DNA of 64,000 nt, taken from sequence record NC_100371.1; one strand, 5' to 3'. The DNA is from a phage. Positions 4,580 through 25,931 of the stretch are shown here, piece by piece. The notes under the pieces were generated by a model, which was given only the letters and a program-made list of their open reading frames with translations, did no database searches and was not told the origin of the DNA. Position numbers and translations under genes: made by a program. The first letter of the stretch is position 1. Every line of letters starts with the position of its first letter.

Positions 4580-4588
4580 GATTTCTCC

Positions 4589-4863: not shown

Positions 4864-5910
4864 TTAAGCATAAGATATAGTGATCCATTGACCGTTTACA
4901 AATTTTTGAATGGCACCAGTCCAATAGTCGCCTTGATACGGGTGTTTATAGGCGTAATTGCCGGAGCACATTACATGCCCAGGGTATACTCTTGATTCTC
5001 TGTAGGTGGTTCTGAAACGGTTTGCTATCCTTACATCTTCAACACCCCTACTAGGCATAGGAATAGTAAGGTTACCACTGCTATCTGCGCTACTACCATT
5101 TACCCTGCGGACCACGTTTCTCCCACCAACTGTTGCATATTGACCCCTGGCGGTGTTATCGTTACAATCCACTCTTCCACCTATTTGAGCGCTGCCGCAG
5201 GATTGTTGTCCATTAACAGTGGCTCTTGGTATCGTTACCGCATTAGCATTTGCAGAGGAGCTTTTTGCATCATTGCATTCAAGATTCCCTTGGATAGCCA
5301 GTCTTGCACGGTTGGCAGTTATAGCATTAAGCTTCATAGCCGAAAACACAGGCTGCCCACCAGAAGGTTGAAATCTCCAACGGAAACCGTCTATTTGGTG
5401 AGAAGGATCATCAAGGTCTGTGCCGTCAGCGCCGCCGATGTTGTCCATAATCCAGAAATCCATCATCGTTTTGTCTGGAGTTATGGTGGTGTATATCGCT
5501 GCATTGTCTGTTGACGCGGATGCAAACTCGATTCTTTGAAGACCCAAAGTTTGAGTCTGGGTCATTGTGTCTCCAGTCTTGTCAACATACAGGTCATCCA
5601 TTTCTTCAGGCGAGTATACATTGAGGACTTTACGTGCAGCAGCTTTGTCTGGAACGTCTGCCAGATTATTAGTGACCCTTAAGAATCTATTATCCCATCC
5701 AGGGACAACATCTTCTGTTAAATGCTTTAGCCACGCAGAGAGCATGTGGAGTTCAAAGTTAACAACTTCACATGCTATCCTTTGTGTCATATCCCAACCT
5801 TTCAATCTCTCTTCTTTGTTCGGTTGAGACTTGTTCAACTCTCCTGTATTTTCAAGCACAACATCCTGATTGGCCCAAATATCGAGAGGGATAACTGGTT
5901 TAGTCATCAC
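4864..5910 (-). CDS. tail fibre protein, paralog A (348 aa)
   Basis: N-terminal (PLDIWA...KGWD) and C-terminal (KFVNGQWITISYA) segments shared with 6923..7963; contains VDKTGDTMTQ. Confidence 0.5.
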   Translation of the reverse strand: MMTKPVIPLDIWANQDVVLENTGELNKSQPNKEERLKGWDMTQRIACEVVNFELHMLSAWLKHLTEDVVPGWDNRFLRVTNNLADVPDKAAARKVLNVYSPEEMDDLYVDKTGDTMTQTQTLGLQRIEFASASTDNAAIYTTITPDKTMMDFWIMDNIGGADGTDLDDPSHQIDGFRWRFQPSGGQPVFSAMKLNAITANRARLAIQGNLECNDAKSSSANANAVTIPRATVNGQQSCGSAQIGGRVDCNDNTARGQYATVGGRNVVRRVNGSSADSSGNLTIPMPSRGVEDVRIANRFRTTYRESRVYPGHVMCSGNYAYKHPYQGDYWTGAIQKFVNGQWITISYA

Positions 5911-5997
5911 ATTCTCCTGAGAAAATTCCTTAAGGACTATTTTAACACTTTAGAGAACAAAATGCAAGAACGGCATCCTTACCGTTCTTACCTTTGT

Positions 5998-6312
5998 TTA
6001 CCTTTTACTATGCTCTACAAGCATGTGCAAAATCTTTTGTACATCAGCTCGGATACCGGAGACATCTGTCCTGACATCTTGCTTAAGGTCGTTAATATCG
6101 GCCTCTAGCTTACTTAACCGGGTCTCGATAATGGAATCAAGTCTATCTTTTGTAACCATGCTATTTTTCACTAAAATGAGGTCTTTCTCCAGCTCATCCA
6201 ACCTCTTGGAAATGCCTTTCCATTTGGTGTGCCACTGGTTGAAAGCCCATACACAGATCGGGACAACGGTACCCATGCAGATACCGTACAATGCCGCCAA
6301 ATCCAACTCCAC
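5998..6312 (-). CDS. small membrane protein with N-terminal TM helix and coiled coil (104 aa)
   Basis: Hydrophobic segment ALYGICMGTVVPICVWAF followed by heptad-like charged region (LDELEKDLILVKN...LSKLEADINDLKQDV). Confidence 0.4.
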   Translation of the reverse strand: MELDLAALYGICMGTVVPICVWAFNQWHTKWKGISKRLDELEKDLILVKNSMVTKDRLDSIIETRLSKLEADINDLKQDVRTDVSGIRADVQKILHMLVEHSKR

Positions 6313-10048: not shown

Positions 10049-10734
10049 TAACCCTCCTGTCTAGTTGCGTTTACTGTAATACTTTCACAATAAATGGTTG
10101 TAGTGTCCCAATCAAGTCTTACGTCAGGAACATATAACAAAGTAGCCAGCCCACCAACCCCGAACTGATTTTCTTCCCACACTGATCCAAAGCCGAGAGC
10201 TGTAGAGTCCCCTTCAAAACCAAAAGCTTGTCCTTGCGACTCCGTAAGACGCAAATGACAAGGCAATGGCAGCATATCTAAGATTTGGTCGATAGACTGC
10301 AATATGTCAAAGCAAGTTTTTCTAATGTTTATGTCAAACCTGAAATTGTCACCTTTCCACGTATCGAAATTATCTCTTCCGAACAACTGTCGTAAGGTGG
10401 AGATGACATCTTCGCGAGTACCACCTCTTGATGATGCTGCCTGCTGAATAATCAGCGTAGCACGAAAATCCGCGTCTGAAAGACCATTCCTAAGAATACC
10501 AAGTTGATTACCAACTTCGTCAAGGTATCTCCCGCTGGCATTGTTAAGCAATCTTCCTTCAGCCAAGCCTACCAGCATTTTATCAACATTCTCCAACCTT
10601 TTAAGGTACACGGTTAAGAATGTGACTAAATTAACCTTCTCAGCCAGAAAATCCCCAGAGAGGTAATCAAGACCTCCCTGAACAAAATCTGGCAGAGTGT
10701 GGATGTGGTTGACATCCGACTTAATCTCTGCCAT
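10048..10734 (-). CDS. hypothetical structural protein (228 aa)
   Basis: ORF with start overlapping stop of upstream gene (translational coupling) within tail module. Confidence 0.3.
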   Translation of the reverse strand: MAEIKSDVNHIHTLPDFVQGGLDYLSGDFLAEKVNLVTFLTVYLKRLENVDKMLVGLAEGRLLNNASGRYLDEVGNQLGILRNGLSDADFRATLIIQQAASSRGGTREDVISTLRQLFGRDNFDTWKGDNFRFDINIRKTCFDILQSIDQILDMLPLPCHLRLTESQGQAFGFEGDSTALGFGSVWEENQFGVGGLATLLYVPDVRLDWDTTTIYCESITVNATRQEG

Positions 10735-10745
10735 ATCTCACCGCC

Positions 10746-12236
10746 TTAAATAGTTTGTTGGAAAGTTATATTACTTTCGTCTAGATCAAACACCTCAGTC
10801 ATGTTTGCAACAATATCGTTTGTGGTGTAAGCTTCATCAGAGGCCCCCACAGGTTTGACTTGAATTACAAGTCTGTTAAATCTGCCTATTGACACAGCAG
10901 CCGATGCAGCACCAACCAATTGGATATTGTACAATGTATCTGCAACATCCAGTCCGTTAACAACCTGCAAAAGAGCCTCTACAATGGCATCTTTTTCGGT
11001 TGTAGAAAGCGCAGCACCTGAGTAGGTAATTCTTACATCTAGGCGGTAGGTATTTGCCTTGGAGTAATAAATCCTTTCAGTCTGACCGTCTGATGTGGTA
11101 ATATCGTAGAAGATATTCCCATAAGTTCTGTTTGTGCAAGCTATGGTTTGATACAGCGCCTGACAGATATCCTCTGTTGCACCACCAAACACCACCACTT
11201 GAAACTTATAAGGTGGTATACCTTTCGCATCCGTTTTATCGGTGTTGTTAGAGAACACTCTTACTTTCTCAACACCCTTCACCTCGCTTACAGCGCTAAG
11301 GATTGCAGGACGGGTAGCTTTAGATGTCAACTGTTTAGTGCTGGAAGCTCTTAGGCGATACTCAGAGTCTTTCTCAACATCCCTGCCCTCATTGAATCTT
11401 TCTCGGTTGGTAAGCTTGATAAATCCACTGGGAGTAGGTGACATTGTTGTCACGGTTTCTGCCTCTCTTGACAGCTCACCCGCCTCGTTAGCGATAACAT
11501 CTAGGGTGATAGTTCTTTCCCCTACAATCGGGGATACTCTGAAATCTACCCTGCTATTAAGTCCAACTTGATCAAGATTCGAATTGTACCCTATCCACAA
11601 CGTCCCTGTCAACATATCTATCTGAATTAAATCATCATTCAGCAGGGTTGTATTATCGACAATGAATTGCTTAATCTCGCCGTAAAAGCTTGGCAAATCA
11701 GAAGAGTCCAGAGCCTTATCTGTTAAAACCAGACTTTTTGTTTTGATACTTCCGTCTGTCTGGTTGGTAATTTGAAAGTTGTATTTCCCAATTCTTAGGT
11801 CTGGAGCGTTTATTCTGTGAGCAATAAGATTTCCCGCCACCTGCACATCGTTGCTAAGAACAAAGTTGCCACTGTCCAGCGTATAAGTTTTGGAATCATA
11901 AATCATATTGTACGGCACAGTTGTATTGATTGTCAACTGGCAGGTACCTGATGATTTAGAACGGCCTCTTCGGTAAATACCCTGTCTTCCAAGAAGCTCA
12001 TCCAGGTAAATACCTTCTGCCCCATATAGCGTCTGTGATGCGTATACAGATGCTGCCATAAGAATAAGTTGATATTCTCGCTCGTTGAAAATAGTGGTCA
12101 GCTTATCTGCAACTGAGTTACTTTGTACGTTGAAGTTTTCGCCAAAAGCACGGATCAGGCTTTGCTTAGTTTCAACGATTAGGTCATTTAGGGTTGGTAT
12201 AACGAAACCAGCCTCTGTCAATCCATACTTAGCCAC
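10746..12236 (-). CDS. hypothetical tail/fibre-associated protein (496 aa)
   Basis: ORF downstream of J-like gene; Thr/Ser/Asn-rich. Confidence 0.3.
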   Translation of the reverse strand: MAKYGLTEAGFVIPTLNDLIVETKQSLIRAFGENFNVQSNSVADKLTTIFNEREYQLILMAASVYASQTLYGAEGIYLDELLGRQGIYRRGRSKSSGTCQLTINTTVPYNMIYDSKTYTLDSGNFVLSNDVQVAGNLIAHRINAPDLRIGKYNFQITNQTDGSIKTKSLVLTDKALDSSDLPSFYGEIKQFIVDNTTLLNDDLIQIDMLTGTLWIGYNSNLDQVGLNSRVDFRVSPIVGERTITLDVIANEAGELSREAETVTTMSPTPSGFIKLTNRERFNEGRDVEKDSEYRLRASSTKQLTSKATRPAILSAVSEVKGVEKVRVFSNNTDKTDAKGIPPYKFQVVVFGGATEDICQALYQTIACTNRTYGNIFYDITTSDGQTERIYYSKANTYRLDVRITYSGAALSTTEKDAIVEALLQVVNGLDVADTLYNIQLVGAASAAVSIGRFNRLVIQVKPVGASDEAYTTNDIVANMTEVFDLDESNITFQQTI

Positions 12237-12341: not shown

Positions 12342-15300
12342 TTAGTCGTGAGACTCGTTCCAAGGTCCCTGGAAGCTTGAGTTAGAACGACTAACGATCA
12401 CAGTGGGACAGGAGATTGTGACACCTGTCACGCTAGACGTTGACCACGGTGTGTAAATCTCGATAACAATGTCTATAGTTTGTTCACCCAGACCTGTTAT
12501 CCCTACCGCACACATGCCGTTGTTGTCGTTAAAATACTTCTTGCCAGCAAGGATCTGATGACCAGCTATCCATGCATTCAGCTGGGAGCTGGCAAGAGTA
12601 CCATTCAGTTTAAAGAAGAATGTTACGTTCTTACCCTGACCTGAAACGTTATCTACGTATCTCCACCTCCAACGGCAAACCCTTTGCTGGGAGTTATATA
12701 CTGGAGCACAATCTCCGTAAGTCCTGTGTGCAACGATTGCACCTTCGAACTGGTTAGCACGGATAACGGAAGCTTCTACACGTCCACGGAATGTACCTCC
12801 TGTTGCATCTATGGTCCCTCTAAAGCTACCGTTGTTGGCATAAACATCCCCACGGAAGGTACCACTGGTGGCGTTAACTGCCCCTGTGAAGTTACCTGCA
12901 CTAGCGTTAATGTTACCTTTCACCCACACATCCATAAACTGGGCGTGCCCGTTCTTGTTAATATACCAACCGTATTTGTGGTACCCATTGCCATCGTAGT
13001 TGTTTGACGAAATTTCTTGCGCGATCTTGGCAGAAGAGATCGTGCCGTTCTCTATAAAAGCGTCTTTCAAGAACGCTTGGTTGTTCTTGATTGCGAAAGC
13101 AAGGGTTGCTGTCCCATTGCCCGGGTTGTATACCGCAAAGTTGTTTGCGCTAACCATGAAATATGACTGAACTTGGCCTCCAGAGCCTTCCATGCCTAAC
13201 TGGATACCTGCCACATACTTATTCCCTGCGGAGTCTACCTGTATTTTTGTGCCCCATTGAGCATTTACTTTGCCCTCTAAGTCGGTCACAGCCTTAGATG
13301 TTGTAGCCACTGCAGCTCTGAGCTCTGACACATCCCCAACATCATCAATGATCTCCTGCTTAGCAACAGCAAGTTCTTGACGAATAGCTGACGCTGTGCC
13401 GTTAATAAGATCCACGGTTGCTTTGTTGGTATCGGAAATTGTAGCATCCAGAGCTGTCTTTGTGGAGGTCAGTTTACCATCTAAATCCTTAATCGCCTGT
13501 TTGTTGGTAGAAATCTCCCCACGTGCAGAGGTTATCTGCTCTGACAGTGCAGAGGTTTTCTGATTCAACAAATCGGTGGTGGCCTTGTTGGTATTGGCAA
13601 TCAAGGTATTGAGATCAGTTTTTGCGGTAGTTATCTTACCATCAAGGGTGGTATAGTTTTTAGATACCGTCGCGTTTGTCTGACTAATCTTTTGATCCAG
13701 GGTCTCAGAGGTCTTGTTCAAAAGATCCACTGTCGCTTTGTTGGTGCTCAGGATGCTTGCATCAAGTTCCGTTCTCTGGGTGTTGATCTTGCCATCCAGA
13801 GTTTTATCTCCGGCAAGGTATCCGCTCTCCACACCATCTATTTGTTCTACCAACTCCCCTTTGGCTGCAACCAATTTCTCGTCTAAAGCCTCTGTCTTTT
13901 TGTTCAGAAGATCAGTGGTTGCTTTATTGGTTGTCTCGATCAGGGATGCCAGTCTTCCACTTTCAGTGTTCAGATCGTTGGTGAACTTGTTCTGTGCAGC
14001 AACAAGTTTCCTATCCAGAGCTGTGATATTTCCATTGACATCCTCAAACTTCTGAGTTGTCTCTGTAACTACCGCACCTATCCTATCTCCAAGTTGTTGG
14101 AATGCCTCATCTACCCTTCCGTCCATGTACTTGTTAAGCTCTGTGACACGATTTTCAACCTCCTCGATAGAGGAATCTAAAGTGCTCATCAACTCTTTAT
14201 AAGTTTCTGTCTTTTTAAATTCAGCATCTATCTGAGGCATCAAATCTTCAATAGAGGTGTAGCAGCGTGCAGCGCATTCTACAAACTGAGAACTACCAAA
14301 AGCGTTTGTGGTTCGAATATACCAATAATAAATCTTATCGTTCTGCAGACCTTCAGATGTCCAAGTTGAACCAACACCCATACGGGTGGCTTTTGAAGTA
14401 ACGGTTGCATCACTTGTGTCCGGCAACCTTGTCATACCAGATGTCCAAAAATCATACTGGGTGCTTACACTTGCTAAGTCCCTGCTGTGCGGAATCAAGG
14501 TGATAGCAAAGTATCCCTGCTTAACTTCTACAGAAACAGGAGCTTCAGGTGCTTGAATGTTGAACTCGCAGTAGGCTTCTGGAGATACACCACCTTTATA
14601 AGATGTTGCAACCACGGTTGCTGTGTATGACCCTTTGGTCAATCCTTCTACGCGGACAAACTGCTCGACTGTTTGTGCTGTCCAAATAATCTCTCCGTTC
14701 TTTCTTACCTGCACAATATTTTGAGCATAAGTTCCAACGTTGTCCCAAGCCAAAACACCATGAGTTACTTCCCCAGCTTGAAGAACAGAGTATCTGAAGT
14801 TTTGCGGTTGAGCTACGCCGGACGGGGATATCGGAATATCCACATCTCCAGAATCCGGAAGTTGCCCTGTGGCATCATTCCACTCTTTAGCATCTTGACG
14901 GAGTTTTACCTTGACACCGCCCTTTTTGGTGAACTCCCATTCAAGAACCCTCATTTCTTGGCCCACTATACCAATACTTGGAAGGTCCATCGTAACGTAA
15001 CGCCCAGGCTTAAATTTAAAACCCCGCATATTGCAGGTTACTTCAATAATCCTGCCAGCTCTGGCACGTCTTAAGAATATTGCGGAAACACGCTGAGCCT
15101 GATAAGGACTGGTAACAAAACGATAATCTATATCAATTATCTTTCTTTCTCCGTCCTTCTCTACCCATTCAGGTACGAACACCGACGGGAAGTCTGTTTC
15201 AGAATACCCTTTGGTTGGACTGGTGAATCTTCCGGTTATTGTGTTTGATCTTTTGTCGAAGGAGGCTTCAGGATAGATCTTAACCTCACCGCAAACACAG

Positions 15301-16181
15301 TCCTCACTCAGTGTCATTGTTGCCGGGCCATAGTATGCACCTACCAGTAGACCATATTTGCCAGCCACATAGCTAAGGTCTGCACCACAAGCCTTCAGCA
15401 TCTCTGCCATAATACTTGCTGGTGCTTCGTCCATGTCGAACTCGCCATTAATGGTGTAACGGCGCTCACTGGTTCCGTCCGCGTTTTTTACAGCCTCGTC
15501 GCATATGTTGGCAGCTTCCTTGAAGGACTCCCAGTTGATGGTTTCGTCAGGACATTTAAGGTACGTTCTTAGATAGTCCAGAATCACCAAGGCAGCGTTA
15601 TTGGTATACATCTCTTTACTGATACGAGGATCATAACATTTTTTACCAACCTTGACAAGTGTAACGTTTGGCAACCCAAAAGGAAACTTGTTAGGGTCAA
15701 ACTTAAAGCTGGCACGTAGCCAACTGATACCTCTACCTATCATGTCTGGTGACCACGAAGGGCAGTGTGTTCCCATGAAAGGATCAGAGGTTTTCCTGTC
15801 GTTATGTAACTCCCACGATACCAAATCCCCATACGAGGAAATAGGATTACCGTCGATAAGTATATCTTCTATACCTTCCAAGGGATGATTGGCAAGAACA
15901 ATAGCACAATGAAGGGTTCTGTCCCTGTCCTGCTCCAAAAACGCAAGCAACCCAGATGTGCGTGTCTTCCCATACACTACAGAGCAAGGTGCAGCAGAAG
16001 ATCTGAGAAGTTTTTGTCTATCTTGCTGACTCCTGTAAGATTTGTTTCCTTCGAAAATCTTATCCAGGGTTCTGGTGGTAACAGTGTTCAGGCTGTCAGC
16101 CAGAGCTGCCTTGGATGCGTTCCAGTCATAGCTCGAAGATCTTGCAGAAGCAACGATGTTATCAATCATTGCAATTGGCAT
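12342..16181 (-). CDS. central tail fibre / host specificity protein, lambda J-like (1279 aa)
   Basis: Segments KQGYFAITLIPH, YYWYIRTTNAFGSSQFVE and VAGIQLGMEG...FMVSANNFAVYNPGNG resemble the fibronectin-type region and C-terminal part of lambda gpJ as I recall it; size fits. Confidence 0.55.
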   Translation of the reverse strand: MPIAMIDNIVASARSSSYDWNASKAALADSLNTVTTRTLDKIFEGNKSYRSQQDRQKLLRSSAAPCSVVYGKTRTSGLLAFLEQDRDRTLHCAIVLANHPLEGIEDILIDGNPISSYGDLVSWELHNDRKTSDPFMGTHCPSWSPDMIGRGISWLRASFKFDPNKFPFGLPNVTLVKVGKKCYDPRISKEMYTNNAALVILDYLRTYLKCPDETINWESFKEAANICDEAVKNADGTSERRYTINGEFDMDEAPASIMAEMLKACGADLSYVAGKYGLLVGAYYGPATMTLSEDCVCGEVKIYPEASFDKRSNTITGRFTSPTKGYSETDFPSVFVPEWVEKDGERKIIDIDYRFVTSPYQAQRVSAIFLRRARAGRIIEVTCNMRGFKFKPGRYVTMDLPSIGIVGQEMRVLEWEFTKKGGVKVKLRQDAKEWNDATGQLPDSGDVDIPISPSGVAQPQNFRYSVLQAGEVTHGVLAWDNVGTYAQNIVQVRKNGEIIWTAQTVEQFVRVEGLTKGSYTATVVATSYKGGVSPEAYCEFNIQAPEAPVSVEVKQGYFAITLIPHSRDLASVSTQYDFWTSGMTRLPDTSDATVTSKATRMGVGSTWTSEGLQNDKIYYWYIRTTNAFGSSQFVECAARCYTSIEDLMPQIDAEFKKTETYKELMSTLDSSIEEVENRVTELNKYMDGRVDEAFQQLGDRIGAVVTETTQKFEDVNGNITALDRKLVAAQNKFTNDLNTESGRLASLIETTNKATTDLLNKKTEALDEKLVAAKGELVEQIDGVESGYLAGDKTLDGKINTQRTELDASILSTNKATVDLLNKTSETLDQKISQTNATVSKNYTTLDGKITTAKTDLNTLIANTNKATTDLLNQKTSALSEQITSARGEISTNKQAIKDLDGKLTSTKTALDATISDTNKATVDLINGTASAIRQELAVAKQEIIDDVGDVSELRAAVATTSKAVTDLEGKVNAQWGTKIQVDSAGNKYVAGIQLGMEGSGGQVQSYFMVSANNFAVYNPGNGTATLAFAIKNNQAFLKDAFIENGTISSAKIAQEISSNNYDGNGYHKYGWYINKNGHAQFMDVWVKGNINASAGNFTGAVNATSGTFRGDVYANNGSFRGTIDATGGTFRGRVEASVIRANQFEGAIVAHRTYGDCAPVYNSQQRVCRWRWRYVDNVSGQGKNVTFFFKLNGTLASSQLNAWIAGHQILAGKKYFNDNNGMCAVGITGLGEQTIDIVIEIYTPWSTSSVTGVTISCPTVIVSRSNSSFQGPWNESHD

Positions 16182-16618
16182 TAATACCTCCAGACATCAA
16201 CAACGATAGAATCTTTCATGTCGAACATAAAGATCCCTTTATCACCTTTCGCCCAAATCTGGTTGTTCCAGAACACACCAGCGGTTAGCCCGTTCAGACC
16301 TTTGAAAATAACAATATCACCACGCTGAACCTGTTTAGGAGTATCCAGTCGAGTCAAAAAGAGATCAAAAATAGTAGGCAGGTGTGTGGTTTTGAAACGA
16401 AGCATGCACCATCTCTTGCTTTCCAACTCTGTTTTATATGTTCCTTCAAAGTTAGAAATAAAATCTGTTCCGTATTGGGCATCAACACACTTAGCCGCAA
16501 AGGTGCAGCAATCGTGGAATCCCCATTCAAACGGGACGGTGGCTTCTTCGTCAAACACTTTCCACAATCTTTCTTGCCAGTCTACTAAACGAGGGTGTGT
16601 GCTCATTAAACCTCCCAA
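16181..16618 (-). CDS. tail tip assembly protein (145 aa), possible Cys/His peptidase-like
   Basis: Start overlaps J-like gene start region; contains FHDCCTF; placement like lambda I/K. Confidence 0.3.
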   Translation of the reverse strand: MGGLMSTHPRLVDWQERLWKVFDEEATVPFEWGFHDCCTFAAKCVDAQYGTDFISNFEGTYKTELESKRWCMLRFKTTHLPTIFDLFLTRLDTPKQVQRGDIVIFKGLNGLTAGVFWNNQIWAKGDKGIFMFDMKDSIVVDVWRY

Positions 16619-17172
16619 ATGATCGGGCGGCTTGCCACCTGATCCACATATTTAAAAAATCTGTCATTATCGTTTCTTGAGCTATGGCTTTCCTCTGTGT
16701 ATCGATAAGGAAAACCTCTTAACCAGCTGTTGAAGATGGAAGAGATGGATATAGACAAAGCACTATTCTCCCCTGTCTGAATAGCCATGTCTGTTATAAG
16801 GCCGTCAAACAAGCCATTAGTTGTAACAGGTAAACCATTCTCCATAGCGGTGATATATAACGTGGCACGGCAACCAGAATACTCCGTCTTCAGCAGATCA
16901 CCTACATACTTGGGATCAAACCCGTTCAATGTTGCTACCACAGATCCGAAGTTGGTGGCATCTTTCTCAGACACAGCAGTCAATGTTGCTGATCCACCTA
17001 TTCCTATAAAATGTTGCCCCTCAATCACCACAACACCAGTGCCTGAGCACACCCTGACAGTTCCTGTTGGCAGCTCTAGCTTTGCAGCAATTAAGATCTC
17101 AACACTATCAAGCTCTAGCTTTTCAAGAAATAAATTATCTAATGGCGCTCTTATCATCTTAGAAATCCTCAA
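16606..17172 (-). CDS. tail tip protein (188 aa)
   Basis: ORF overlapping neighbours in an M-L-K-I-J-like run; no motif recognised. Confidence 0.3.
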   Translation of the reverse strand: MRISKMIRAPLDNLFLEKLELDSVEILIAAKLELPTGTVRVCSGTGVVVIEGQHFIGIGGSATLTAVSEKDATNFGSVVATLNGFDPKYVGDLLKTEYSGCRATLYITAMENGLPVTTNGLFDGLITDMAIQTGENSALSISISSIFNSWLRGFPYRYTEESHSSRNDNDRFFKYVDQVASRPIIWEV

Positions 17173-17749
17173 AGAAGTTGATAACTATATTGTCACCTTT
17201 CTGCATAGCATCAACCTTTTGCTTAATCTTATAGAGATCCCTGATATGAAATCTACCCTTCGGAGATTGAGTTATTATCTTCATAGTATCTCCTGCGGCA
17301 ATAGGTTTCCTAAGTCTTGGTGATATGTTTATAACAGCTGCCCCCACACCATCACTTCGCACTGAGGATGTTACAACTTTCAACTCATCATTGACAGATA
17401 TTTTATCCCCAGCCCTGACTATATCTCTGTTCGGTTCCCAACCAACCGTCTTCAAAAAATCGTCATTACCAGTTGGTCCTAGAGCGATTGGCTCATTGGA
17501 AGTAACTGAATGACCATAGGCCTTGATAAGAAAAATGTTTCCATCTTTGTAAACCTGATCAACAAAACTTTTAAGCTCCAATAGCTGGGACTCACTTATA
17601 TTGGAAACCGTCAAAGTTCCTTTCCAGTTGGGCGTGGCATAGGTTACTTTTTGCGTCTTACCTGTAAACGGGCTTTTAAACGTAACAATATCTGCCAGCA
17701 ACTCCAATCTAATATCTGGAAGATATCTAGGTCTTTCCCATAAAAACAT
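17159..17749 (-). CDS. minor tail protein (196 aa)
   Basis: ORF in tail-tip run; size resembles lambda gpL-class proteins; weak. Confidence 0.3.
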   Translation of the reverse strand: MFLWERPRYLPDIRLELLADIVTFKSPFTGKTQKVTYATPNWKGTLTVSNISESQLLELKSFVDQVYKDGNIFLIKAYGHSVTSNEPIALGPTGNDDFLKTVGWEPNRDIVRAGDKISVNDELKVVTSSVRSDGVGAAVINISPRLRKPIAAGDTMKIITQSPKGRFHIRDLYKIKQKVDAMQKGDNIVINFFEDF

Positions 17750-17810: not shown

Positions 17811-17841
17811 ACAAACAAAAAGCCCTCGCCGAAGCGAGGGC
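17811..17841 (-). terminator. intrinsic terminator (minus strand)
   Basis: GCCCUCGC-UUCG-GCGAGGGC hairpin followed by UUUUUGUUUG on minus strand, just downstream of 17855..18187. Confidence 0.6.
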
Positions 17842-17854: not shown

Positions 17855-18187
17855 TTAAAGTGCTTCCAAGGTAGATACTGATGGGTCGAACATGTTCAAC
17901 CTTATCGGATCTACAATTTTTCCGCTTTTAGAGATGATATTTTCTGCATCTTCGTCCAGAGCCAGAACGTTGACATAAAACAATTTACTTTTCTCGCAAA
18001 CTGGGTAGACAACCATGTTGCCAAACTCATCCTCGGCCTCATAAGTGTCTTCAGTTTCTGTGTAAATGAACCCGACAACCTCTACAAGAAGGGTGTTTTG
18101 CAACACCTCATTCTCGTAAAAGCCGATTTCGTCCATGAAACCGTTAAAATCCTCCCTACCAGTAAACCCAAGGGTAAAAGTATTCAT
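17855..18187 (-). CDS. minor tail protein (110 aa)
   Basis: Small acidic ORF overlapping stop of the 1479-aa gene; size like lambda gpM. Confidence 0.3.
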   Translation of the reverse strand: MNTFTLGFTGREDFNGFMDEIGFYENEVLQNTLLVEVVGFIYTETEDTYEAEDEFGNMVVYPVCEKSKLFYVNVLALDEDAENIISKSGKIVDPIRLNMFDPSVSTLEAL

Positions 18188-21100
18188 TATTCAACACTCT
18201 CCATCATAAGCTGGGTGTCGGTCAATGCAGAGTTCCAAACTCTTACATCTTTAATATGACCAAACAAATGTCTTTCACCTGTCGCCGTTTGACCTCCGAG
18301 ACGGATGAGAGCGCCTCCTGCCAGGAATTCCCAAGAAGATTGCGTTTCCGTACTCACCAATCCGTTAGCAAAAGAGCAGGTTTTACCGTCATCTTTTATC
18401 CTGAACCCAATTTTCAATTTACGTGTTTTAGCCATCTCATAGACACGTCTGTTTGAACCGCCAATATCACAATATGGATAACCATCTTCTGCAATATTTG
18501 CTGCAGAGCCAAATCCCATGATAAATGCAGCACCGTATTGGTGGCCCTCTGTATCAATAACTCTAGGAGCTGCGTTAGGAGCTTTTCCCCAACCTCTCCA
18601 GTTGGCATCCACCGTAGCGGCGATGGTGAACGGTCTAGGTGCTAAATTATCAGTCATTGGGAATTTACAAAGGTCTGCTGCCCTAGTCACTGGTGAAGAC
18701 CCTGTAGGGATAAACGAGGACTCACAAGATCCTAACTCGAACTGAGGTATTGCGACGTCAACCCAATCCCCTACGGCATGTTGAGAACCATCCGGTGGGG
18801 CAATCTGGAACTGGCACCCAATATTCATGTCAGAGTCCACTGCCTCAAACGTAGCAACAACTCTTATCCAAGCAGGTCCGGCTGTTTGCCATCTCTCAGC
18901 TTTTACTTTAATTCTCCCAGCTGCAACACCTGTTGTTTTAACTTCAAGTGTTGACAGGTTAACATAGGCATCACCTTGGAATACTGTGGTGGATCCGTTA
19001 TACATGTCAAATCTTACACGCAGTCTCTGGTGAGCTTTACCACCTCTTGCAATAATAGACCCAGTACAAAATTTCTCAGCACCTGTTACATCTGCACCAC
19101 GGGTGGCTGGAACTGTAGCCAGGTTTAACGCTGTTGTTTCTACACCGGATACGTTGCTTACTGTAAATCTTGCACCTTTTGTGCCGTTGGTGTTTGTTAC
19201 AGTGTTACCGACCGTAATCTGTGACTGGGCTCCCCATTTGCTCGGATCTTCACTGTTAAGCATCAGATTTGTCCTTTGACCTTCAATGAGCAGACCATCT
19301 CTTTCGAAACGTGGTTGGTTTGCCTGTGCAACAGCCATGACACCGCGCTTAGTGAAATAGGTTGCGGTAGAAGGTCTGGAGAAGATCATCTCCCCCTCAC
19401 CTAACACAGGTTTCAGGTTAGAGGTTAAAGGTAGCCACAGATCTGGCATAACTGGGGCAGTTGTACTTTCTGGGAAGCTAGTTCTCTTCCAAGGGCTCCA
19501 GTTCATTCCACTGCCAGTGTTATTATAATACCTTTCCCACGTTCCACCAAGATACATTTTATATATCTGGACACACCCTGTACCCTCGTTGGCAGAGTTT
19601 CTAAGCACGATAAGCGTACCAGCCATCTGCTGTCCTGGTGGGTAGTGTCTCTCCGCTGTGGCGTTGGCATTTGCCTCTTGATGGTAAATACCTTCGCGAT
19701 CCGCTTTGTAATCGTTAAGGTCGCTAGTTCCCAACCCTTGTCCACGGTGCTGAATAACTTTGTTCCACGCTCTGTGGTTACCCTGCTCTATGGAACGGGT
19801 GTACAGCTGATCTAAACGACCTGCCATCTGGAAAGCATAGTTTCCAGAAAATGCCACAGACAACCCACCAACAACCATTGAACCTTCAGGCCCGTTGACG
19901 TTGCCAGCCAGTATTTTGGACGGATTATTATTTCCGAACTGGTTGTTCCAGTCTGCACCTGTGTGGCATACAAAACCACCTGGGGCCGAGAAAGTACCGT
20001 CTTTGTTGAAATTGTAGAATCTGTGAGCTGTGCCAACAACATCGCGAACAATAACTTGACCCGCTTCTGGAGTAGATCTGAACTCTGCCTGACCTTTGAG
20101 ACCAGCACCATTGCCGCATTTAGAGGTAAATGTGCCGTTAGTCAGATCCTCTGTCCCATCTGATGCACACTGGAATCCTGCATTAGAGAATAACGCCTTT
20201 CTAGGACTGCTGTAGCACAAATAGTCAATACCGTCTGCCCATAGCTCGACTTTCGGCATGTTCATTTTGCTCATCACTGCATAGCGTTCAGCAGTGCCTA
20301 TATAGTGCCACTGTGTGCCGCCGCCAGTGTAGAACCCAGAAGTACCTTTGAAGTCAACAATAGGTCTGGTGTTTGTATTGTTATCTCCAAGAACAGCAAG
20401 ATTCAAGTCTGCCGACTGGAGAGGTGAAACGAACTTAACACCGTCCTGATTGTTTGTTACAGAGCCGACCTGATAATCTTGCTCTCTGGTAAACACTTCG
20501 ACAACATTTCTACTTGCGTATATGCTAACAGGGAAAGCACGAGCCTCTACATAGAAAGCAACATACTCTTGTTTACCCCTTGTTGGAGCAACCATCCCAA
20601 GAATTGCTTTTTCATTCTGGTAGAAATTTACTACCCCGTAGAAAGAGTCTCCTCTGTCTGTCCAACCACCAGTTCTATAGTGACACTGCAAGGTGGCGCA
20701 GTTCATAGGGTCACCGCCAGATGAAGATCTGGTAACTATGGTAATATCAGTGCCAGTTGCTGGAGCATAGTACGGATCTGTTCTGACGATGATCGGGTAG
20801 TATTTCCCATCTTCCATTCCTGCGGTTCTTGGCAGTGTTAAGAAGTCTTTTACACCTGCTGCTATAGGAACTTTGAACAGATTCTGAGCATCTGCTAAAG
20901 TTGTAGCCCCAGTGCCGCCTGCGGCTTGAGGTAAAGGTTCCCACTTGGCCTTCCGGTTGTTATACACACCCCATTCCAGAGTGCCGTTACCGGATTCATC
21001 CATCCCTCCATCCCAAACGACCATTTTTGCGGCTTTCTTGGATCCCCAGAACCCTCTTTCTGCTCCTGAACTACGGATCCATTCCCCAAGTCCCCAGTTT

Positions 21101-22626
21101 GTCAGCTGACCAGTGAGATCCCCAACCTGCATGTATTTAGGACAATCTAATACGCCATCCTCACGGAATCCTAAATATCTATGAGTTTCAGATCCTTTTG
21201 CACCTTTGTGGAGGTGAATTGTTAACCAAGCCTTATTATCGTTTCTTACCTCGGAGTAGATCCTATACCCATGCTCAAGAACACCGTCGGTGTCATATTT
21301 ATCCCCATGGAGAATACCTGAAGCAGATTTAACATCTCCTGAGTATTGAGCCAAGTAAAGGTGCCCGAAAGCAGGGGAGTTGTTTTTACCAAGGCCGATA
21401 TGAGATCTGAAGGTGTCATCATTCCGAGGTCTGACCATCGGCTGCCATGCAGTCCACTGGTTTGTGTTGGCCTGATAGGTTCTCAAATACCAAACATCTA
21501 CGTTAGAGAATGGATAGTATTCCTGACGACAGCCAGTGCCACCGTTAGCATTGTTCTGCCAAACAATCAGGTGACCAGCACCAGAACCTGCAGGGTAACC
21601 ATTTGCCTCAGTTGCATTAGCGGTTATCGGCTGGTAGTATATGCCGTCCTGATTACCAGTCAAGTTATTGATATTGAAATTTGCCTCAAGGGCTGCACGT
21701 TGCTTATAGAAAGCACCGATATTGATACGGACTCCAGCGGCATCTCTAGCTCCTGTACCGCCTTGCTCTATAGCAAGAGGTTGCCACGAGGCTGTTTGTT
21801 GGTTCCACATGCCCCAACGGCCTGCTGCATCAAGCTGCAAATACCCTGCCGTGTTTAAATCATCTCCGGCACGGATAACTGTTCTTGTTGGGTTGTTTGC
21901 CTCTAGGCGTTTAAATTCATCACGAAGTGCTATTCTTTTTGTTGTTGCCACACCGTTGGTCACTGCAATGGTGTACATGGCTCCGGAGGTAGCGCCACGG
22001 AAAATACCATCAACAGTTGTAGTATCACGACGAGATACCACACCGTTCAGAAATTTTTCACCAGCTGCTTCAGAAGGGTAGTTAGTAGTTCTTCCCTCTT
22101 CAATAACTGCAGGACCCACAAAGTTGACAAGGTGAATAACATCGCCTACAGTATGCACTGTACCAAAATCTACCCGCTGTGCAAGTGCTTTAGCATCGTT
22201 GGCTGTCTGAACAGTAACATCCATTACATCCTGGACAGACTGCCCTTCGGCTGTCATGATCATAGATGCGCCAATGGTAGATTCCAGCTCCTCCCTTAAG
22301 GACGGATCTGTATATACCATCCATGCAGCGTCAGTAATCCCCCCGTCGGAGTACGGTGAAGACAGTGCAGGAACAGTGTGTGGAAATTCGCCTTTCCAAC
22401 GCAGGTAGAGGTCTTCCTCTTCGAAGTAGGCAAAATCCATTGGGCCGTTTAACTTACCACCTTCCTTAAAGGAGATTACATGAGAAACAGTCCCATCCAC
22501 ATGGACAACATCGCCAATTTTTACACGACGGGTCAGGTCTGGTTGTTGAACAACCAGGTAATCATCCTCTGTCACTGCGGTAGTGGCAGGAAGAGATTCA
22601 ATTCTGACAACTTTAATATCAGCCAT
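18187..22626 (-). CDS. giant tail fibre protein (1479 aa) with internal duplication
   Basis: N-terminal ~100 aa homologous to N-terminus of 25263..25931; duplicated segments (ANATEANGYPAGSGAGHLIVWQNNANGGTGC vs ANANATAERHYPPGQQMAGTLIVLRNSANEGTGC; WQPLAIEQGGTGARDAAG vs WEPLPQAAGGTGATTLADA). Confidence 0.5.
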   Translation of the reverse strand: MADIKVVRIESLPATTAVTEDDYLVVQQPDLTRRVKIGDVVHVDGTVSHVISFKEGGKLNGPMDFAYFEEEDLYLRWKGEFPHTVPALSSPYSDGGITDAAWMVYTDPSLREELESTIGASMIMTAEGQSVQDVMDVTVQTANDAKALAQRVDFGTVHTVGDVIHLVNFVGPAVIEEGRTTNYPSEAAGEKFLNGVVSRRDTTTVDGIFRGATSGAMYTIAVTNGVATTKRIALRDEFKRLEANNPTRTVIRAGDDLNTAGYLQLDAAGRWGMWNQQTASWQPLAIEQGGTGARDAAGVRINIGAFYKQRAALEANFNINNLTGNQDGIYYQPITANATEANGYPAGSGAGHLIVWQNNANGGTGCRQEYYPFSNVDVWYLRTYQANTNQWTAWQPMVRPRNDDTFRSHIGLGKNNSPAFGHLYLAQYSGDVKSASGILHGDKYDTDGVLEHGYRIYSEVRNDNKAWLTIHLHKGAKGSETHRYLGFREDGVLDCPKYMQVGDLTGQLTNWGLGEWIRSSGAERGFWGSKKAAKMVVWDGGMDESGNGTLEWGVYNNRKAKWEPLPQAAGGTGATTLADAQNLFKVPIAAGVKDFLTLPRTAGMEDGKYYPIIVRTDPYYAPATGTDITIVTRSSSGGDPMNCATLQCHYRTGGWTDRGDSFYGVVNFYQNEKAILGMVAPTRGKQEYVAFYVEARAFPVSIYASRNVVEVFTREQDYQVGSVTNNQDGVKFVSPLQSADLNLAVLGDNNTNTRPIVDFKGTSGFYTGGGTQWHYIGTAERYAVMSKMNMPKVELWADGIDYLCYSSPRKALFSNAGFQCASDGTEDLTNGTFTSKCGNGAGLKGQAEFRSTPEAGQVIVRDVVGTAHRFYNFNKDGTFSAPGGFVCHTGADWNNQFGNNNPSKILAGNVNGPEGSMVVGGLSVAFSGNYAFQMAGRLDQLYTRSIEQGNHRAWNKVIQHRGQGLGTSDLNDYKADREGIYHQEANANATAERHYPPGQQMAGTLIVLRNSANEGTGCVQIYKMYLGGTWERYYNNTGSGMNWSPWKRTSFPESTTAPVMPDLWLPLTSNLKPVLGEGEMIFSRPSTATYFTKRGVMAVAQANQPRFERDGLLIEGQRTNLMLNSEDPSKWGAQSQITVGNTVTNTNGTKGARFTVSNVSGVETTALNLATVPATRGADVTGAEKFCTGSIIARGGKAHQRLRVRFDMYNGSTTVFQGDAYVNLSTLEVKTTGVAAGRIKVKAERWQTAGPAWIRVVATFEAVDSDMNIGCQFQIAPPDGSQHAVGDWVDVAIPQFELGSCESSFIPTGSSPVTRAADLCKFPMTDNLAPRPFTIAATVDANWRGWGKAPNAAPRVIDTEGHQYGAAFIMGFGSAANIAEDGYPYCDIGGSNRRVYEMAKTRKLKIGFRIKDDGKTCSFANGLVSTETQSSWEFLAGGALIRLGGQTATGERHLFGHIKDVRVWNSALTDTQLMMESVE

Positions 22627-22640
22627 TCTTTCTCCTGAAA

Positions 22641-22657
22641 GGGGGCAAACAGCCCCC
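22641..22657 (-). terminator. hairpin (attenuator-like) immediately upstream of RBS of 1479-aa fibre gene
   Basis: GGGGGC-UGUUU-GCCCCC on minus strand followed by UUUCAGGAGAAAGAAUG (RBS and start of 18187..22626). Confidence 0.4.
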
Positions 22658-22663
22658 TATATG

Positions 22664-25261
22664 TTAAAGGTACAATCCACGGTATTGAGCATAAAGACCC
22701 AGACCGCGAAGGATTTCGCCAGAGTGATAGCCAACCGGATCAGAAACTGCCCAGCAGCCGTTTAAAATATTATCCCCGTTAATGAAGTGGTGCTTTTGCA
22801 GTAACTTCACACAGGCCTCTACAACAATATCTATTTGAGGTATTGTCTCTGAATACCCGCAAAGACCTAGCCAGCAGCAACCTGCAAGCCATTCACCTAC
22901 CACCCACATCCTGTCACCTCTGTCTTGATAAGAGTATCCACCAGAGGTGTTAAAGTCTGTAGGCAAATTTCCTGAATGGGATGACTGGAATCTGTTGAGG
23001 AACCATGCCCATTTCTGGCAGAACAGGAATAGTCTTTCATCAACAGGCTCTTTATGTTTCTTGAGCTCATATATTGTGCGGCACGCAGCAACAAAAGATC
23101 TTGACTGGAGTTTAGAGTTATCTACCATCTCCCACCAACCAGTCAACCCTTCATTACCTCTCTGCCATACATAACGTGAGGCAACTGGACCCTCTGTCTT
23201 AAATGTATTGTTATACCAGACTTGAGAGTCATACAGAAAGCCTATTGTATTTGACAATCTATGGCGGTCTATGTTTTCTGCGCCCATGCAGTAGACTGCT
23301 GGGTATTGCATACCAGGGTAGGGCCAATTTGGCCTTTCCTCTAAGAGATAATTTTCCTTATCTATCACCTTTCCGGCAGGGAACACACCCGGCGTGTGCC
23401 TGTATGCACCTTGCTTGTAGTTTCTGACATAACAATCGCCAACCTTAGCGGTCGATTCTGTCTTGCTTGCCATCCATACACTAAACCAAATTAGGTAAGC
23501 ATCTCTATCTGCAACATAAAATTGCGGTAGCGTGTTGACGCAATACAGATCAAACAAGCCATTGCCTATCTGCCTGTCGCTCAGACTGAAATCTACAGAG
23601 GTGATCCCCTTGGTGTTAGCAAAGAAAGGTTTAATCTCCTCTTCGGTGTGATGAGGTTGTGTAGGGTCTAGTTTAAAATCTCCCAGAGTAAGAGTTTCTG
23701 TTATCCATTGTCCATTAGTGGCATATAGATCAGCATACCATAACCAACGGTCTTTGTCAAGAAATTTGACCCTTACCATCTCATCATCTGATCGATAAGT
23801 CACTGAGTTTAAAGAAATCTCTCTTCCAAAATTGAAAGTTACTTTGCCTTTTACTATATTGCAACGGGTGAAGTTGTCAGAGTGGTTGTAAATGTCGGTA
23901 TCATACTGCATACTAACACTAGCGCCACCGCTTACGGCAATGTTTTCCTCTTTTGGCAAGAGATATGGGTTACCGTCTTTACCAACCACCTCTACAAAAT
24001 CAGTAACCTTGGCAACTGTTTCTGTTACCTCTGCCCCTCCAAAAGGGACACCTATTCTGTACTGTTTTTTGTTATTGTTGCCATCATTAAGGATGAAATG
24101 TGGCTGGAACAGAACCCCTTCTCCTCCGAAATTCATAACAATTTCAGCATCTCTGCCTATTTTGTATGTAGTCCCTTTTTGGATTATTTCGCAAGGCTGG
24201 CGTGCGTTCATTCTAAAATTGATATATCCGTCACTATCCCTACTTATGACAGGTACTGTTCCTGCAACTAGACAAGTGCCATCTGTGAACGGGGCCTTAA
24301 TCAACGTGGTCTTTCTGAACAGCTTGTCGTAGGCATTTATATCACTAAAATTAAGCAACTTATTGTAAGACTGCTTAAACGCGGTGTAATACTTTTCCTC
24401 ACCTGTCAGGGTGTAGAGTTGATAACAAGCGTCACACCACATCTCTTCCCCATCTAACTCTGGGGCTTGATTGTCTGCAACCACGTTTATAGGATTTACA
24501 ATTACAGGGGATCCAGCAGGTATCACCGATCCGCCCTGCTCTTGAGGCAATCTCACACAATAGGTAACCTTGTGGTTGCCTGTAACACCCTTATCTTGCA
24601 GTTGGATTGTGCCGAACTCTGCAGACGTATGACCACTGTCGGCTATGCTACCGTTGGCCCAATAGCGGTTACCATCCCATGCTATATACCACTCAACCCA
24701 CCAACTTAATCCGGAAGTTGTCCAATTAGGATTAGCATCTGTGCCGCCGTAAACATCAGAGTCTACAGTGTTTCTTCCTAAAACACCGTTATACGCCTGA
24801 AAAGCCTTGTCCAAGTATTCTCCCCATGTCGGGGATCCTGCTGGTATTTTTCCTCTACCTTTGTTAAAAGACACAACCACATCTTTAAACCCACCATGTG
24901 ATGGAACTCCATCTGTGGATAACGGGTAGTGGGACAATCTTTGCATTTTACTTTCTACTGCATATACGCCCAGAAGATGACTGTTGTAGGCTTCCCAAGC
25001 CTCTTTGGCCCTGTCTAGATAAAAATCGCTTTTTGATGCCCTGTATGCCTCAATGTATCCCAGAATCAACACAGCTTGGGACTCATGCATTGCCCAATCA
25101 TTATTTATCTTACTCCCTGACCAACCTGACGCTATAAGTCCATCCTGGTTTACCAGTTTGTTCTGTGTAGGGAGATTGGTAATACCTGTGTTGTTATCGA
25201 GGCACTTCCTGTGCCCCTCGATCATCTGAAATACGTTATCAATGTTGTGTTGAATACGCAT
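22664..25261 (-). CDS. large tail-associated protein, possible glycan-degrading receptor-binding protein (865 aa)
   Basis: Long Trp/Tyr/Asn-rich ORF between baseplate-like genes and giant fibre; enzymatic role is a guess. Confidence 0.3.
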   Translation of the reverse strand: MRIQHNIDNVFQMIEGHRKCLDNNTGITNLPTQNKLVNQDGLIASGWSGSKINNDWAMHESQAVLILGYIEAYRASKSDFYLDRAKEAWEAYNSHLLGVYAVESKMQRLSHYPLSTDGVPSHGGFKDVVVSFNKGRGKIPAGSPTWGEYLDKAFQAYNGVLGRNTVDSDVYGGTDANPNWTTSGLSWWVEWYIAWDGNRYWANGSIADSGHTSAEFGTIQLQDKGVTGNHKVTYCVRLPQEQGGSVIPAGSPVIVNPINVVADNQAPELDGEEMWCDACYQLYTLTGEEKYYTAFKQSYNKLLNFSDINAYDKLFRKTTLIKAPFTDGTCLVAGTVPVISRDSDGYINFRMNARQPCEIIQKGTTYKIGRDAEIVMNFGGEGVLFQPHFILNDGNNNKKQYRIGVPFGGAEVTETVAKVTDFVEVVGKDGNPYLLPKEENIAVSGGASVSMQYDTDIYNHSDNFTRCNIVKGKVTFNFGREISLNSVTYRSDDEMVRVKFLDKDRWLWYADLYATNGQWITETLTLGDFKLDPTQPHHTEEEIKPFFANTKGITSVDFSLSDRQIGNGLFDLYCVNTLPQFYVADRDAYLIWFSVWMASKTESTAKVGDCYVRNYKQGAYRHTPGVFPAGKVIDKENYLLEERPNWPYPGMQYPAVYCMGAENIDRHRLSNTIGFLYDSQVWYNNTFKTEGPVASRYVWQRGNEGLTGWWEMVDNSKLQSRSFVAACRTIYELKKHKEPVDERLFLFCQKWAWFLNRFQSSHSGNLPTDFNTSGGYSYQDRGDRMWVVGEWLAGCCWLGLCGYSETIPQIDIVVEACVKLLQKHHFINGDNILNGCWAVSDPVGYHSGEILRGLGLYAQYRGLYL

Positions 25262-25262
25262 C

Positions 25263-25931
25263 TTAGATAGCTCCTGCGATGATCAGTGCCCCGTACCAAG
25301 TTAGTCCATTATCATATGTTTCCAACTTGAAAATGTCTGTTGCACCAGCTGTAAATGTTAGGATAGGATCTCTTCCGTAGGCCCATTTAACATTGTCAGG
25401 CCAATAAACTTTGTTACCACCAGAGGTCTGCGTTATGCATACAGTTATAGTTCTTGCCACTCCGTCGAGCCCTTCTGTTTGATTTTCAAAAGAGATTGTG
25501 GTGTTTGAAGTGAGCCGAACTTTAAACGTGTCTGCAACGTCAAGATCCATGTCAAGTTGACCACCAATAGAGCCGTAATCAACTATCCTACCTGAAGAAG
25601 TTGCAGCAAGCTCTCCAAAAACAGACCATGCTTTTGCAGACACACCTCCGGCACCCTCTACAGTGGAATCTGGGAGGATTATTTTAGGATAATCTCCATT
25701 CCATGTGTAGTAGCGCTTAGTTTCCGGATCATAAGCAAAATCCTTCTTGCTCTTAAGATAACCGCCCTCTGTGAAATAAACTATTTTAGTAATGCTAAGA
25801 TCATTGACAACATCATCAATCTTAGCCTTTCTTGTCCCGTCAGTCTGGTTGACAACCAAGAAGTCATCACTCAAGACTGTTTCTGCATCTTCAAGATCTG
25901 GGATTGGTATTGTAGGATAAGCTACAGCCAT
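25263..25931 (-). CDS. tail protein sharing N-terminal anchor domain with giant fibre (222 aa)
   Basis: Residues ~10-110 align with N-terminus of 18187..22626 (FLVVNQTDGTRKAKIDDVV vs YLVVQQPDLTRRVKIGDVV; FTEGGYLKSKKDFAY vs FKEGGKLNGPMDFAY). Confidence 0.45.
   Translation of the reverse strand: MAVAYPTIPIPDLEDAETVLSDDFLVVNQTDGTRKAKIDDVVNDLSITKIVYFTEGGYLKSKKDFAYDPETKRYYTWNGDYPKIILPDSTVEGAGGVSAKAWSVFGELAATSSGRIVDYGSIGGQLDMDLDVADTFKVRLTSNTTISFENQTEGLDGVARTITVCITQTSGGNKVYWPDNVKWAYGRDPILTFTAGATDIFKLETYDNGLTWYGALIIAGAI

Follow-up and report, generated by a model that had tools for sequence, protein, structure and literature searches.

Paralogous N-terminal modules, a candidate adaptor and a modular fibre shaft at a Vequintavirus lateral tail fibre locus

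We analyzed 64,000 nucleotides of phage DNA (sequence record NC_100371.1; this whole stretch is referred to as the window), focusing on the 7.7-kb segment at 18187-25931. The segment carries three genes, which we call S, M, and G, encoding proteins of 222, 865, and 1479 amino acids (aa), respectively. An earlier interpretation made from the sequence alone, which placed the segment correctly, had proposed that S and the giant fibre G share an N-terminal anchor domain and that G is internally duplicated. We found that the genes belong to the tail and baseplate locus of Vequintavirus, the rV5-like myoviruses of Escherichia coli. The span was matched by 122 phage records, and 72 records aligned over its entire length with 92 to 96% nucleotide identity. 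The order of the genes was the same in CarlMeissner, HMD-6, and rV5, and S, M, and G proved orthologous to gp43, gp42, and gp41 of the rV5 lateral tail fibre locus, at the same level of identity. The high identity and the conserved position between the sheath-initiator gene and a lambda-J-like module identify S and G as Vequintavirus lateral tail fibre proteins. All three rV5 proteins have been detected in virions by mass spectrometry (PMC3606486). The features of the locus are listed in Table 1.

Table 1. Genes, protein segments, and hairpin at the S-M-G locus (window coordinates; pLDDT, predicted local distance difference test; AF2, AlphaFold2; HMM, hidden Markov model; ORF, open reading frame).
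Feature	Position	Strand	Remarks
S (222 aa)	25263-25931	-	rV5 gp43 (ORF43) orthologue
S aa 1-47, plug peptide	25791..25931	-	aligns with G 1-45, GAP31_221, GAP31_223, and phi92-like Bas62_0024
S aa 48-105, Tail_spike_N	25617..25790	-	PF18668; PDB matches 9OCC, CBA120 TSP1, TSP3, TSP4
S aa 113-222, C-terminal beta-sandwich, proposed M docking domain	25266..25595	-	pLDDT 84-90 (AF2)
M (865 aa)	22664-25261	-	rV5 gp42 (ORF42) orthologue; phrog_2871 'tail protein'
G (1479 aa)	18187-22626	-	rV5 gp41 (ORF41) orthologue
G aa 1-45, plug peptide	22492..22626	-	aligned with S-type N-termini; 45-aa peptide HMM
G aa 46-105, Tail_spike_N	22312..22491	-	PF18668; PDB matches 9OCC (E 2.4e-10), 9D84, 9LNA, 4QNL, 4OJ5
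G aa 271-300, collar motif 1 (WGMWN...WQPLAIEQGGTGA)	21727..21816	-	repeat pair z 12.1; left joint of 843-bp deletion
G aa 306-399, pyocin-knob 1 (contains NGGTGC)	21430..21711	-	
G aa 552-581, collar motif 2 (WGVYN...WEPLPQAAGGTGA)	20884..20973	-	Smith-Waterman, phmmer; right joint of 843-bp deletion
G aa 595-760, central globular domain	20347..20844	-	AF2 pLDDT 60-85
G aa 958-1052, pyocin-knob 2 (contains NEGTGC), last module before head	19471..19755	-	right joint of 1956-bp deletion
G aa 1060-1479, exchangeable lectin-like head	18190..19449	-	NCBIfam NF048003 GTA_spike_fiber
110-aa ORF	17855-18187	-	overlaps G stop (TAATG); phrog_1361, function unknown
Terminator-like hairpin, GCCCTCGC-TTCG-GCGAGGGC and T-run	17822-17841	-	8 pairs, 7 G-C

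The homology of about 100 N-terminal residues suggested for S and G was fully borne out. In the BLASTP alignment, S 8-105 and G 7-105 were 38% identical (E 2e-18), and the alignment also held against shuffled controls, the comparison that had been proposed as capable of refuting it: the Smith-Waterman score of 176 stood against 28.3 ± 5.0 for shuffled sequences (z 29.6), and none of 1000 shuffles reached it. We found that the shared region is composed of an N-terminal peptide of about 45 residues, referred to here as the plug peptide, followed by the Pfam domain Tail_spike_N. The latter was recognized at S 51-104 and G 46-103, each with 40.4 bits (E 3.1e-10; gathering cut-off, 25 bits), and all homologues of G and S carry the precomputed label PF18668. 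Both proteins matched solved tailspikes by sequence, namely Sf11 gp13 (9OCC), TSP1, TSP3, and TSP4 of CBA120, and gp63.1 of G7C, which relates them to the N-terminal domains of the CBA120 tailspikes and G7C gp63.1. In G, Tail_spike_N is followed by a conserved LREEL...GAS...VQD segment, which extends to about residue 145.

To follow the plug peptide, we searched the six-frame ORFs of at least 60 aa from the window and six further loci (L001 and L003-L007) with an HMM of the 45 residues. It matched only S-type proteins and proteins encoded in the slot of G (E 3e-26 to 5e-23), and in the same sequences neither this HMM nor phmmer with the N-terminal regions found a third carrier. Among the records listed, every Vequintavirus or Seunavirus genome had exactly two places that were hit by tblastn with S. 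In the Seunavirus GAP31, the S-type homologue (223 aa) contains the whole module, and the gene in the G slot encodes a 712-aa protein whose first ~130 residues are again this module, with 35 to 47% identity between modules. The 712-aa protein is annotated as a 'putative fusion protein' and its Seunavirus homologues as 'colanic acid degradation'; judged by its sequence and these annotations, its body appears to be tailspike-like. The matches of G in Seunavirus phages, obtained with tblastn, span only aa 1-134, the part corresponding to these tailspikes, while aa 1-1048 are conserved across Vequintavirus. In the S homologue of the phi92-like phage JohannJBalmer (157 aa), residues 1-45 lead directly into the C-terminal domain and Tail_spike_N is absent. 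The 45-residue peptide is the sole part of the module kept in all three genera. Behind one N-terminal module there are at least three different bodies, a small beta-sandwich domain in S, a long fibre in G, and a tailspike-like protein in GAP31, and this arrangement fits what an attachment module should look like.

We therefore infer that S and G attach to the virion through the shared module. Proteins of this kind attach, as a general rule, through the N terminus (introduction of the RBPseg paper, PMC12143355), and the rV5 paper had already linked the N terminus of gp43 to the P22 tailspike's N-terminal domain by HHpred (PMC3606486). Sf11 is the one solved virion that has a sequence relative; there, residues 4-59 of gp13 make the tail contact by bundling with a distal tail protein helix (PDB 9OCC, PMC12724387), and residues 67-157, to which S and G align, lie C-terminal to this contact. 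The solved precedent points to the extreme N terminus as the contact part. Because the fibres of phi92 sit either on the wedge protein gp145 or on each other, the partner of the plug in Vequintavirus is, by analogy, likely to be a wedge protein or a neighbouring fibre.

Behind the module, S contains only its C-terminal domain. For all M homologues examined, the small protein encoded upstream ends in this domain. We compared nine contexts, comprising seven from phages (the window, Seunavirus GAP31, phi92-like JohannJBalmer, autographivirus ISAO8, Ounavirinae Fifi318, Grimontviridae SE131, and an Aeromonas prophage) and two metagenome contigs with SU10-type head and adaptor genes. The small S-type proteins range from 157 to 269 aa, all with the S-type domain last, and in nine of nine contexts the S-type gene abuts or overlaps the gene for the M homologue. 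In the window, the ATG of M lies 1 nucleotide past the stop codon of S, and an AGGAG sequence is found within the 3' end of S. The M homologues are 865 to 982 aa long, and longer in Fifi318 (annotated 3219-6246+, cut). BLASTP matched M to them with E-values of 1e-59 to 1e-174, mostly near the full length of M. Nearly full-length identity was 26 to 34% for GAP31, JohannJBalmer, ISAO8, SE131, the Aeromonas prophage, and the two metagenome contigs; a truncated ISAO8 gp39 fragment was 27% identical over aa 12-774, and Fifi318 gp31 aligned in two pieces at 27 to 32%. M itself had no sequence match in Pfam, NCBIfam, or PDB, also when a five-sequence profile was used.

The N-termini of the two partners behave differently. 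The M homologues align from their first ~10 to 20 residues and thus have no lineage-specific N terminus, whereas the N-termini of the small proteins vary by lineage and include the plug, the T7 tail-fibre N-terminal domain PF03906 (P0006), and others unrelated to the plug. Since M has no anchor of its own, the N terminus of the small protein is lineage-specific, and the genes are coupled in every context, S is probably the adaptor for M, so that the two would form a two-part appendage, consistent with the detection of both proteins in rV5 virions. The S-M contact is what these gene pairs would imply. The proposal of one attachment domain with different distal parts is thus upheld in its essence, but it needs to be modified, as the shared region contains two units and S is likely an adaptor. 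S is probably not just a second fibre alongside G, a view that left out the 865-aa M between them.

The C-terminal domain of S belongs to a very large family. S alone as a protein query returned only four close relatives, and the wider family was obtained with an alignment query, which found 3750 clusters (50% identity) at E<=1e-3 in a library of 1.84 billion proteins. Among the best 150 of these clusters, the match ends no more than 12 residues from the C terminus in 124, and the median protein length is 270 aa. Some members of the family are proteins of 1400 to 2000 aa with three to five tandem copies of the domain. Because of the size of this family, we restrict the adaptor claim to the subfamily near S.

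We next turned to the internal similarity of G. Of the motifs quoted as duplicated, the first pair (WQPL.../WEPL...) was located at aa 281 and 562, the second (NGGTGC/NEGTGC) at aa 361 and 1013. By Smith-Waterman comparison, G 251-420 scored 91 against 531-640 (z 12.1) and 134 against 931-1060 (z 17.2), and for both pairs none of 1000 shuffles reached the score. phmmer likewise detected both, with domain E-values of 7.6e-06 for the 531-640 pair and 1.5e-10 for the 931-1060 pair. In contrast, the control pair G 531-640 versus 931-1060 was not significant (z 0.7). Thus, both similarities are real, but they represent two unrelated types of module rather than a single segmental duplication. One is a collar motif with the pattern WG-x-W...W-x-P-L...GGTGA. 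The other is a pyocin-knob domain of ~95 residues: a seven-copy profile of the knob matched 6CT8 (E 8.4e-06), 6CL6 (1.1e-05), and 6CL5 (4.3e-05), and the fold agreed with that of the pyocin knobs. The copies share 43 to 53% nucleotide identity with exact runs of at most 6 nucleotides, and default self-BLASTP of G showed nothing off the diagonal, so that the repeats appear old and diverged. We rejected a recent tandem duplication on account of this low identity and of the lack of relation between the two repeat types.

The shaft between these modules is widely related. Residues ~170-1046 of G are 32 to 36% identical to T5-like lateral fibres (tblastn). The central globular domain matched phrog_745 and phrog_36614 at G 601-703, and tblastn matched its aa 595-724 and 602-700 to genes that encode side tail fibres in other coliphages. 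The AF2 model of G 240-1060 had a mean pLDDT of 45.9 and was usable only at the knobs and the central domain.

The head that follows knob 2 is exchangeable, with the allele breakpoint at G aa 1048-1060. In the window, residues 1113-1317 belong to the NCBIfam 'head spike fiber' family NF048003 (74.9 bits, E 1.1e-20; cut-off, 36), with a weak additional match to Laminin_G_3, and no match to Peptidase_S74 (PF13884) was found in G. T1-like, T5-like, and lambdoid phages have side or lateral tail fibres whose heads are 31 to 47% identical to residues ~1047-1473. Sister Vequintavirus alleles carry either Peptidase_S74 (P0075-P0098) or Collar heads directly after knob 2. The window and rV5 differ accordingly, as the former combines the lectin-like head with the 110-aa ORF, whereas rV5 has an S74 head with no such ORF after it. 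The 110-aa ORF was present in 34 Vequintavirus-like records, the same number as the full-length head, and in lambdoid and T1-like phages it recurs right after the genes for side tail fibres. The equal counts and the joint recurrence indicate that the head and the ORF form one cassette. The ORF may encode either a factor for assembly or a distal adhesin. In rV5, the C terminus of gp41 has been linked to the K1F endosialidase chaperone (PMC3606486).

Natural alleles of G differ in length, and their joints fall at the repeats. An allele of 1198 aa corresponds to G without aa 289-569, removed in frame by the 843-bp deletion. It is present in a finished GenBank genome and in ~15 clusters; in S127 BCL3 (GenBank), the crossover lies within 16 nucleotides encoding GGTGA, and the two flanks match the window at 96.5 and 97.5% identity. 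An 827-aa allele lacks aa 363-1014, again in frame (1956-bp deletion), and is joined at the N-G/E-G-T-G-C codons of the two knobs within a fully syntenic 23-kb contig. The 988-aa allele combines the 843-bp deletion with an S74 head, and alleles of 1623 and 1446 aa vary in how many GGTGA units they have. Because the exact matches between the copies are so short, we rejected homologous recombination of the classical kind as the source of the deletions. This argues for short-homology events, presumably kept by selection at joints that are structurally in register. The length variants may affect host range. In other families of fibres, knob domains have been reported as sites of recombination.

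Together, these results can be accommodated by a model of the receptor-binding part of an rV5-like myovirus baseplate, which we regard as fairly probable. The plug, i.e., the first ~105 residues that are paralogous in S and G, would fix each trimer to equivalent sockets at the baseplate periphery, provided by wedge proteins or by a neighbouring fibre. S, with only a ~110-aa beta-sandwich behind the plug, would carry the 865-aa M encoded by the adjacent, coupled gene. The shaft of G would be built, in order, from a collar motif, a pyocin knob, a collar motif, the central domain, and a pyocin knob, followed by the exchangeable lectin-like head. If the collar and knob modules act as structurally equivalent in-register joints, then recombination between modules, or with other fibres, would yield viable fibres of varied length and head type, and the lineage would vary its receptor-binding protein in this way.

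Several observations weigh against this model. Residues 1-46 of S were poorly resolved in its AF2 model, with pLDDT of 26 to 33, i.e., below 35. In the CBA120 tailspikes, the relatives of the Tail_spike_N part lie ~100 residues in from the N terminus, and the aligned region of Sf11 is absent from the residues modelled at the tail contact; Tail_spike_N may thus, by analogy, be a neck, with the contact surface elsewhere. The domain at the end of S is not always a carrier of M, given the many clusters of its family and the tandem copies in large proteins, and the nine synteny cases were taken from the closest relatives of S and constitute a biased sample. The divergence of the repeats makes ordinary homologous recombination unlikely. 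Finally, we infer RBP_10 and RBP_11 of the RBPseg study to be G orthologues from their head type and from the S74 head of rV5 gp41.

We also considered other explanations. S might be a self-sufficient short fibre with the beta-sandwich as its receptor-binding tip, M being an independent baseplate enzyme in the same cassette. We find this unlikely, since the M homologues have neither a lineage-specific N terminus nor any other visible way onto virions as distinct as podovirus-type, myovirus, and unclassified ones, while the N terminus of the small protein changes with the lineage and the two genes remain joined in all contexts. Even less probable, in our judgment, is that the shared 105 residues are a generic trimerization or neck module and not a virion anchor, with attachment occurring elsewhere or via another protein. 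The internal position of the related region in the CBA120 tailspikes, the modelled tail contact of Sf11 upstream of the aligned region, and the loss of Tail_spike_N from the phi92-like S would all agree with a neck. However, the homology of S and G starts at residue 7 and includes the 45 residues upstream of the Pfam domain, the very peptide common to the three genera. Moreover, attachment by the N terminus is usual for such proteins (PMC12143355), and S has just this region and the M-associated domain, which leaves nothing else for anchoring.

That the internal similarities and the short alleles are artefacts of Gly/Thr-rich composition bias and of collapsed assemblies is an explanation to which we give almost no credence. 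It would account for the blank self-BLASTP, and many of the alleles do come from automatic assemblies of public read sets. Yet, the similarities exceeded all shuffles while the control pair did not stand out, the knobs independently matched solved pyocin structures, the 1198-aa allele occurs in a finished genome as well as in the clusters, and the joints are in frame. In addition, the repeats are too diverged for assembly collapse.

The proposed arrangement has parallels in known systems. The best PDB match to the shared domain is the tailspike gp13 of Sf11 (9OCC, E 2.4e-10; PMC12724387), which resembles S and G in that the segment N-terminal to the aligned region makes the tail contact. The phages differ, however. 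Sf11 is a siphovirus, and a helical contact segment there binds to a distal tail protein helix; for the peptide of S and G, strands are predicted at low confidence, and in a myovirus baseplate it must have another partner. The branched tailspike systems of CBA120 (TSP1-4) and G7C (gp63.1/gp66) are close known relatives of the Tail_spike_N part. In R-type pyocin fibres (6CL5, 6CL6, 6CT8, 6CU2), two knobs are adjacent and located just before the foot; in G, they are ~560 residues apart, and the second forms the border to an unrelated head. The T5-type L-shaped or lateral fibres and the lambdoid and T1-like side fibres share the shaft and head similarity of G and the 110-aa ORF. Unlike G, in which shaft and head are grafted behind the Vequintavirinae plug, they possess their own N-terminal attachment.

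In K1E, K1-5, and SP6-like podoviruses, a large enzyme without its own anchor is carried by a small protein fixed to the tail (a parallel drawn partly from the phi92 paper). S and M would resemble them as an adaptor with an anchorless cargo; the systems differ in that they have no sequence relation and that the contact is, for S and M, a deduction from the gene pairs.

Structural and genomic studies of related phages provide further context. The RBPseg study described the class TC12 of Vequintavirinae fibres from two phages, with a mobile 'pyocin knob' (D7) and D42 modules, a head that is lectin-like in EmilHeitz and S74 in MaxBurger, and cryo-electron microscopy density adjoining the baseplate wedge (PMC12143355). 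For an rV5-like phage, the maps EMD-51868 and EMD-51869 are available. In the BASEL collection, this fibre gene is one of three that are allelically variable, and the assignment of genes to fibres is described as unclear (PMC8594841). In the Vequintavirus literature examined, we found no statement of the N-terminal paralogy of gp43 and gp41, of the S-M pairing, or of the deletion alleles. Our analysis seems to add three things to known work: the explicit paralogy of the S and G plugs, centred on 45 residues, the recurrence of the S-M cassette in different lineages, and deletion alleles whose joints fall at the repeats. The general phenomena, fibre modularity and mobile modules, are already known; what we describe is ordinary phage tail-fibre modularity and leaves the understanding of phage fibre evolution unchanged.

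Vequintavirinae and phi92-like phages are prized for their broad host range, and which gene makes which fibre is still unclear. A plug common to gp43 and gp41, with gp43 probably carrying gp42, narrows the assignment. For engineering, the region around residue 105 offers a concrete fusion point for placing new receptor-binding proteins onto these phages, and the natural deletion alleles show which shaft joints tolerate the loss of modules, giving guidance for the design of shorter or chimeric fibres. More tentatively, an S-type C-terminal domain together with an M-like protein could form a portable receptor-binding cassette of two genes, which exchange of the adaptor N terminus would direct to tails of very different kinds, and the 45-aa plug peptide could mark the occupants of one class of sockets on Vequintavirinae and phi92-like baseplates; we hold this as a possibility that falls somewhat short of probable. 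The 2026 structure of phi92 left fibre II and gp140 unplaced. If the cassette and socket reading is true, S and M, in phi92 gp140 and the next, M-like protein (a pair placed by synteny with phi92-like JohannJBalmer), are candidates for the unassigned fibre density.

All genes of the tail locus are on the minus strand, in the order tape measure, tube initiator, plug, hub, central spike, sheath initiator, S, M, G, 110-aa ORF, and hairpin; the hairpin, terminator-like in sequence, closes the string of genes from S to the 110-aa ORF. Beyond it lie a lambda-like tip module, which ends with the gene for a J-like protein of 1279 aa, and then wedge proteins (496 aa, 10746-12236; 228 aa, 10048-10734) and further fibres. 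The 37-nucleotide gap between M and G (22627-22663) contains a GC-rich hairpin (GGGGGC-TGTT-GCCCCC), followed by TTTC and located directly before the ribosome-binding site of G. The terminator scan did not call this gap hairpin, which might attenuate read-through into G.

The tip module (12342-17749, minus strand) is of siphovirus style and is situated inside a myovirus baseplate gene cluster. It encodes a protein of 196 aa, which carries the annotation distal tail protein in relatives, one of 188 aa annotated as minor tail or baseplate protein, a DUF6950 protein of 145 aa, and the 1279-aa lambda-J-like protein with Phage_Tail_Tip and Ig_J domains. The module is missing, together with G and the 110-aa ORF, at the same position in Seunavirus GAP31 and phi92-like JohannJBalmer. 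A further fibre gene (7976-10048, minus strand) encodes a 690-aa protein with the N-terminal and TIM-barrel domains of an N4-type 'non-contractile tail sheath protein' (PF23844, PF23845; E 7e-80) and Calx-beta. It is the deacetylase-type fibre that the BASEL paper (PMC8594841) tied to recognition of the enterobacterial common antigen.

Some 18 to 25 GenBank records (MG0656xx) labeled 'Campylobacter phage', with Campylobacter jejuni as the stated host, are 92 to 98% identical to the E. coli rV5-like locus; these labels look doubtful and could reflect, for example, coliphage carry-over in the preparations. At ~50000-52000 of the window, the GC skew changes sign and, near 51 kb, the orientation of the genes switches from minus to plus, marking where the block of structural genes borders on one that is transcribed divergently.

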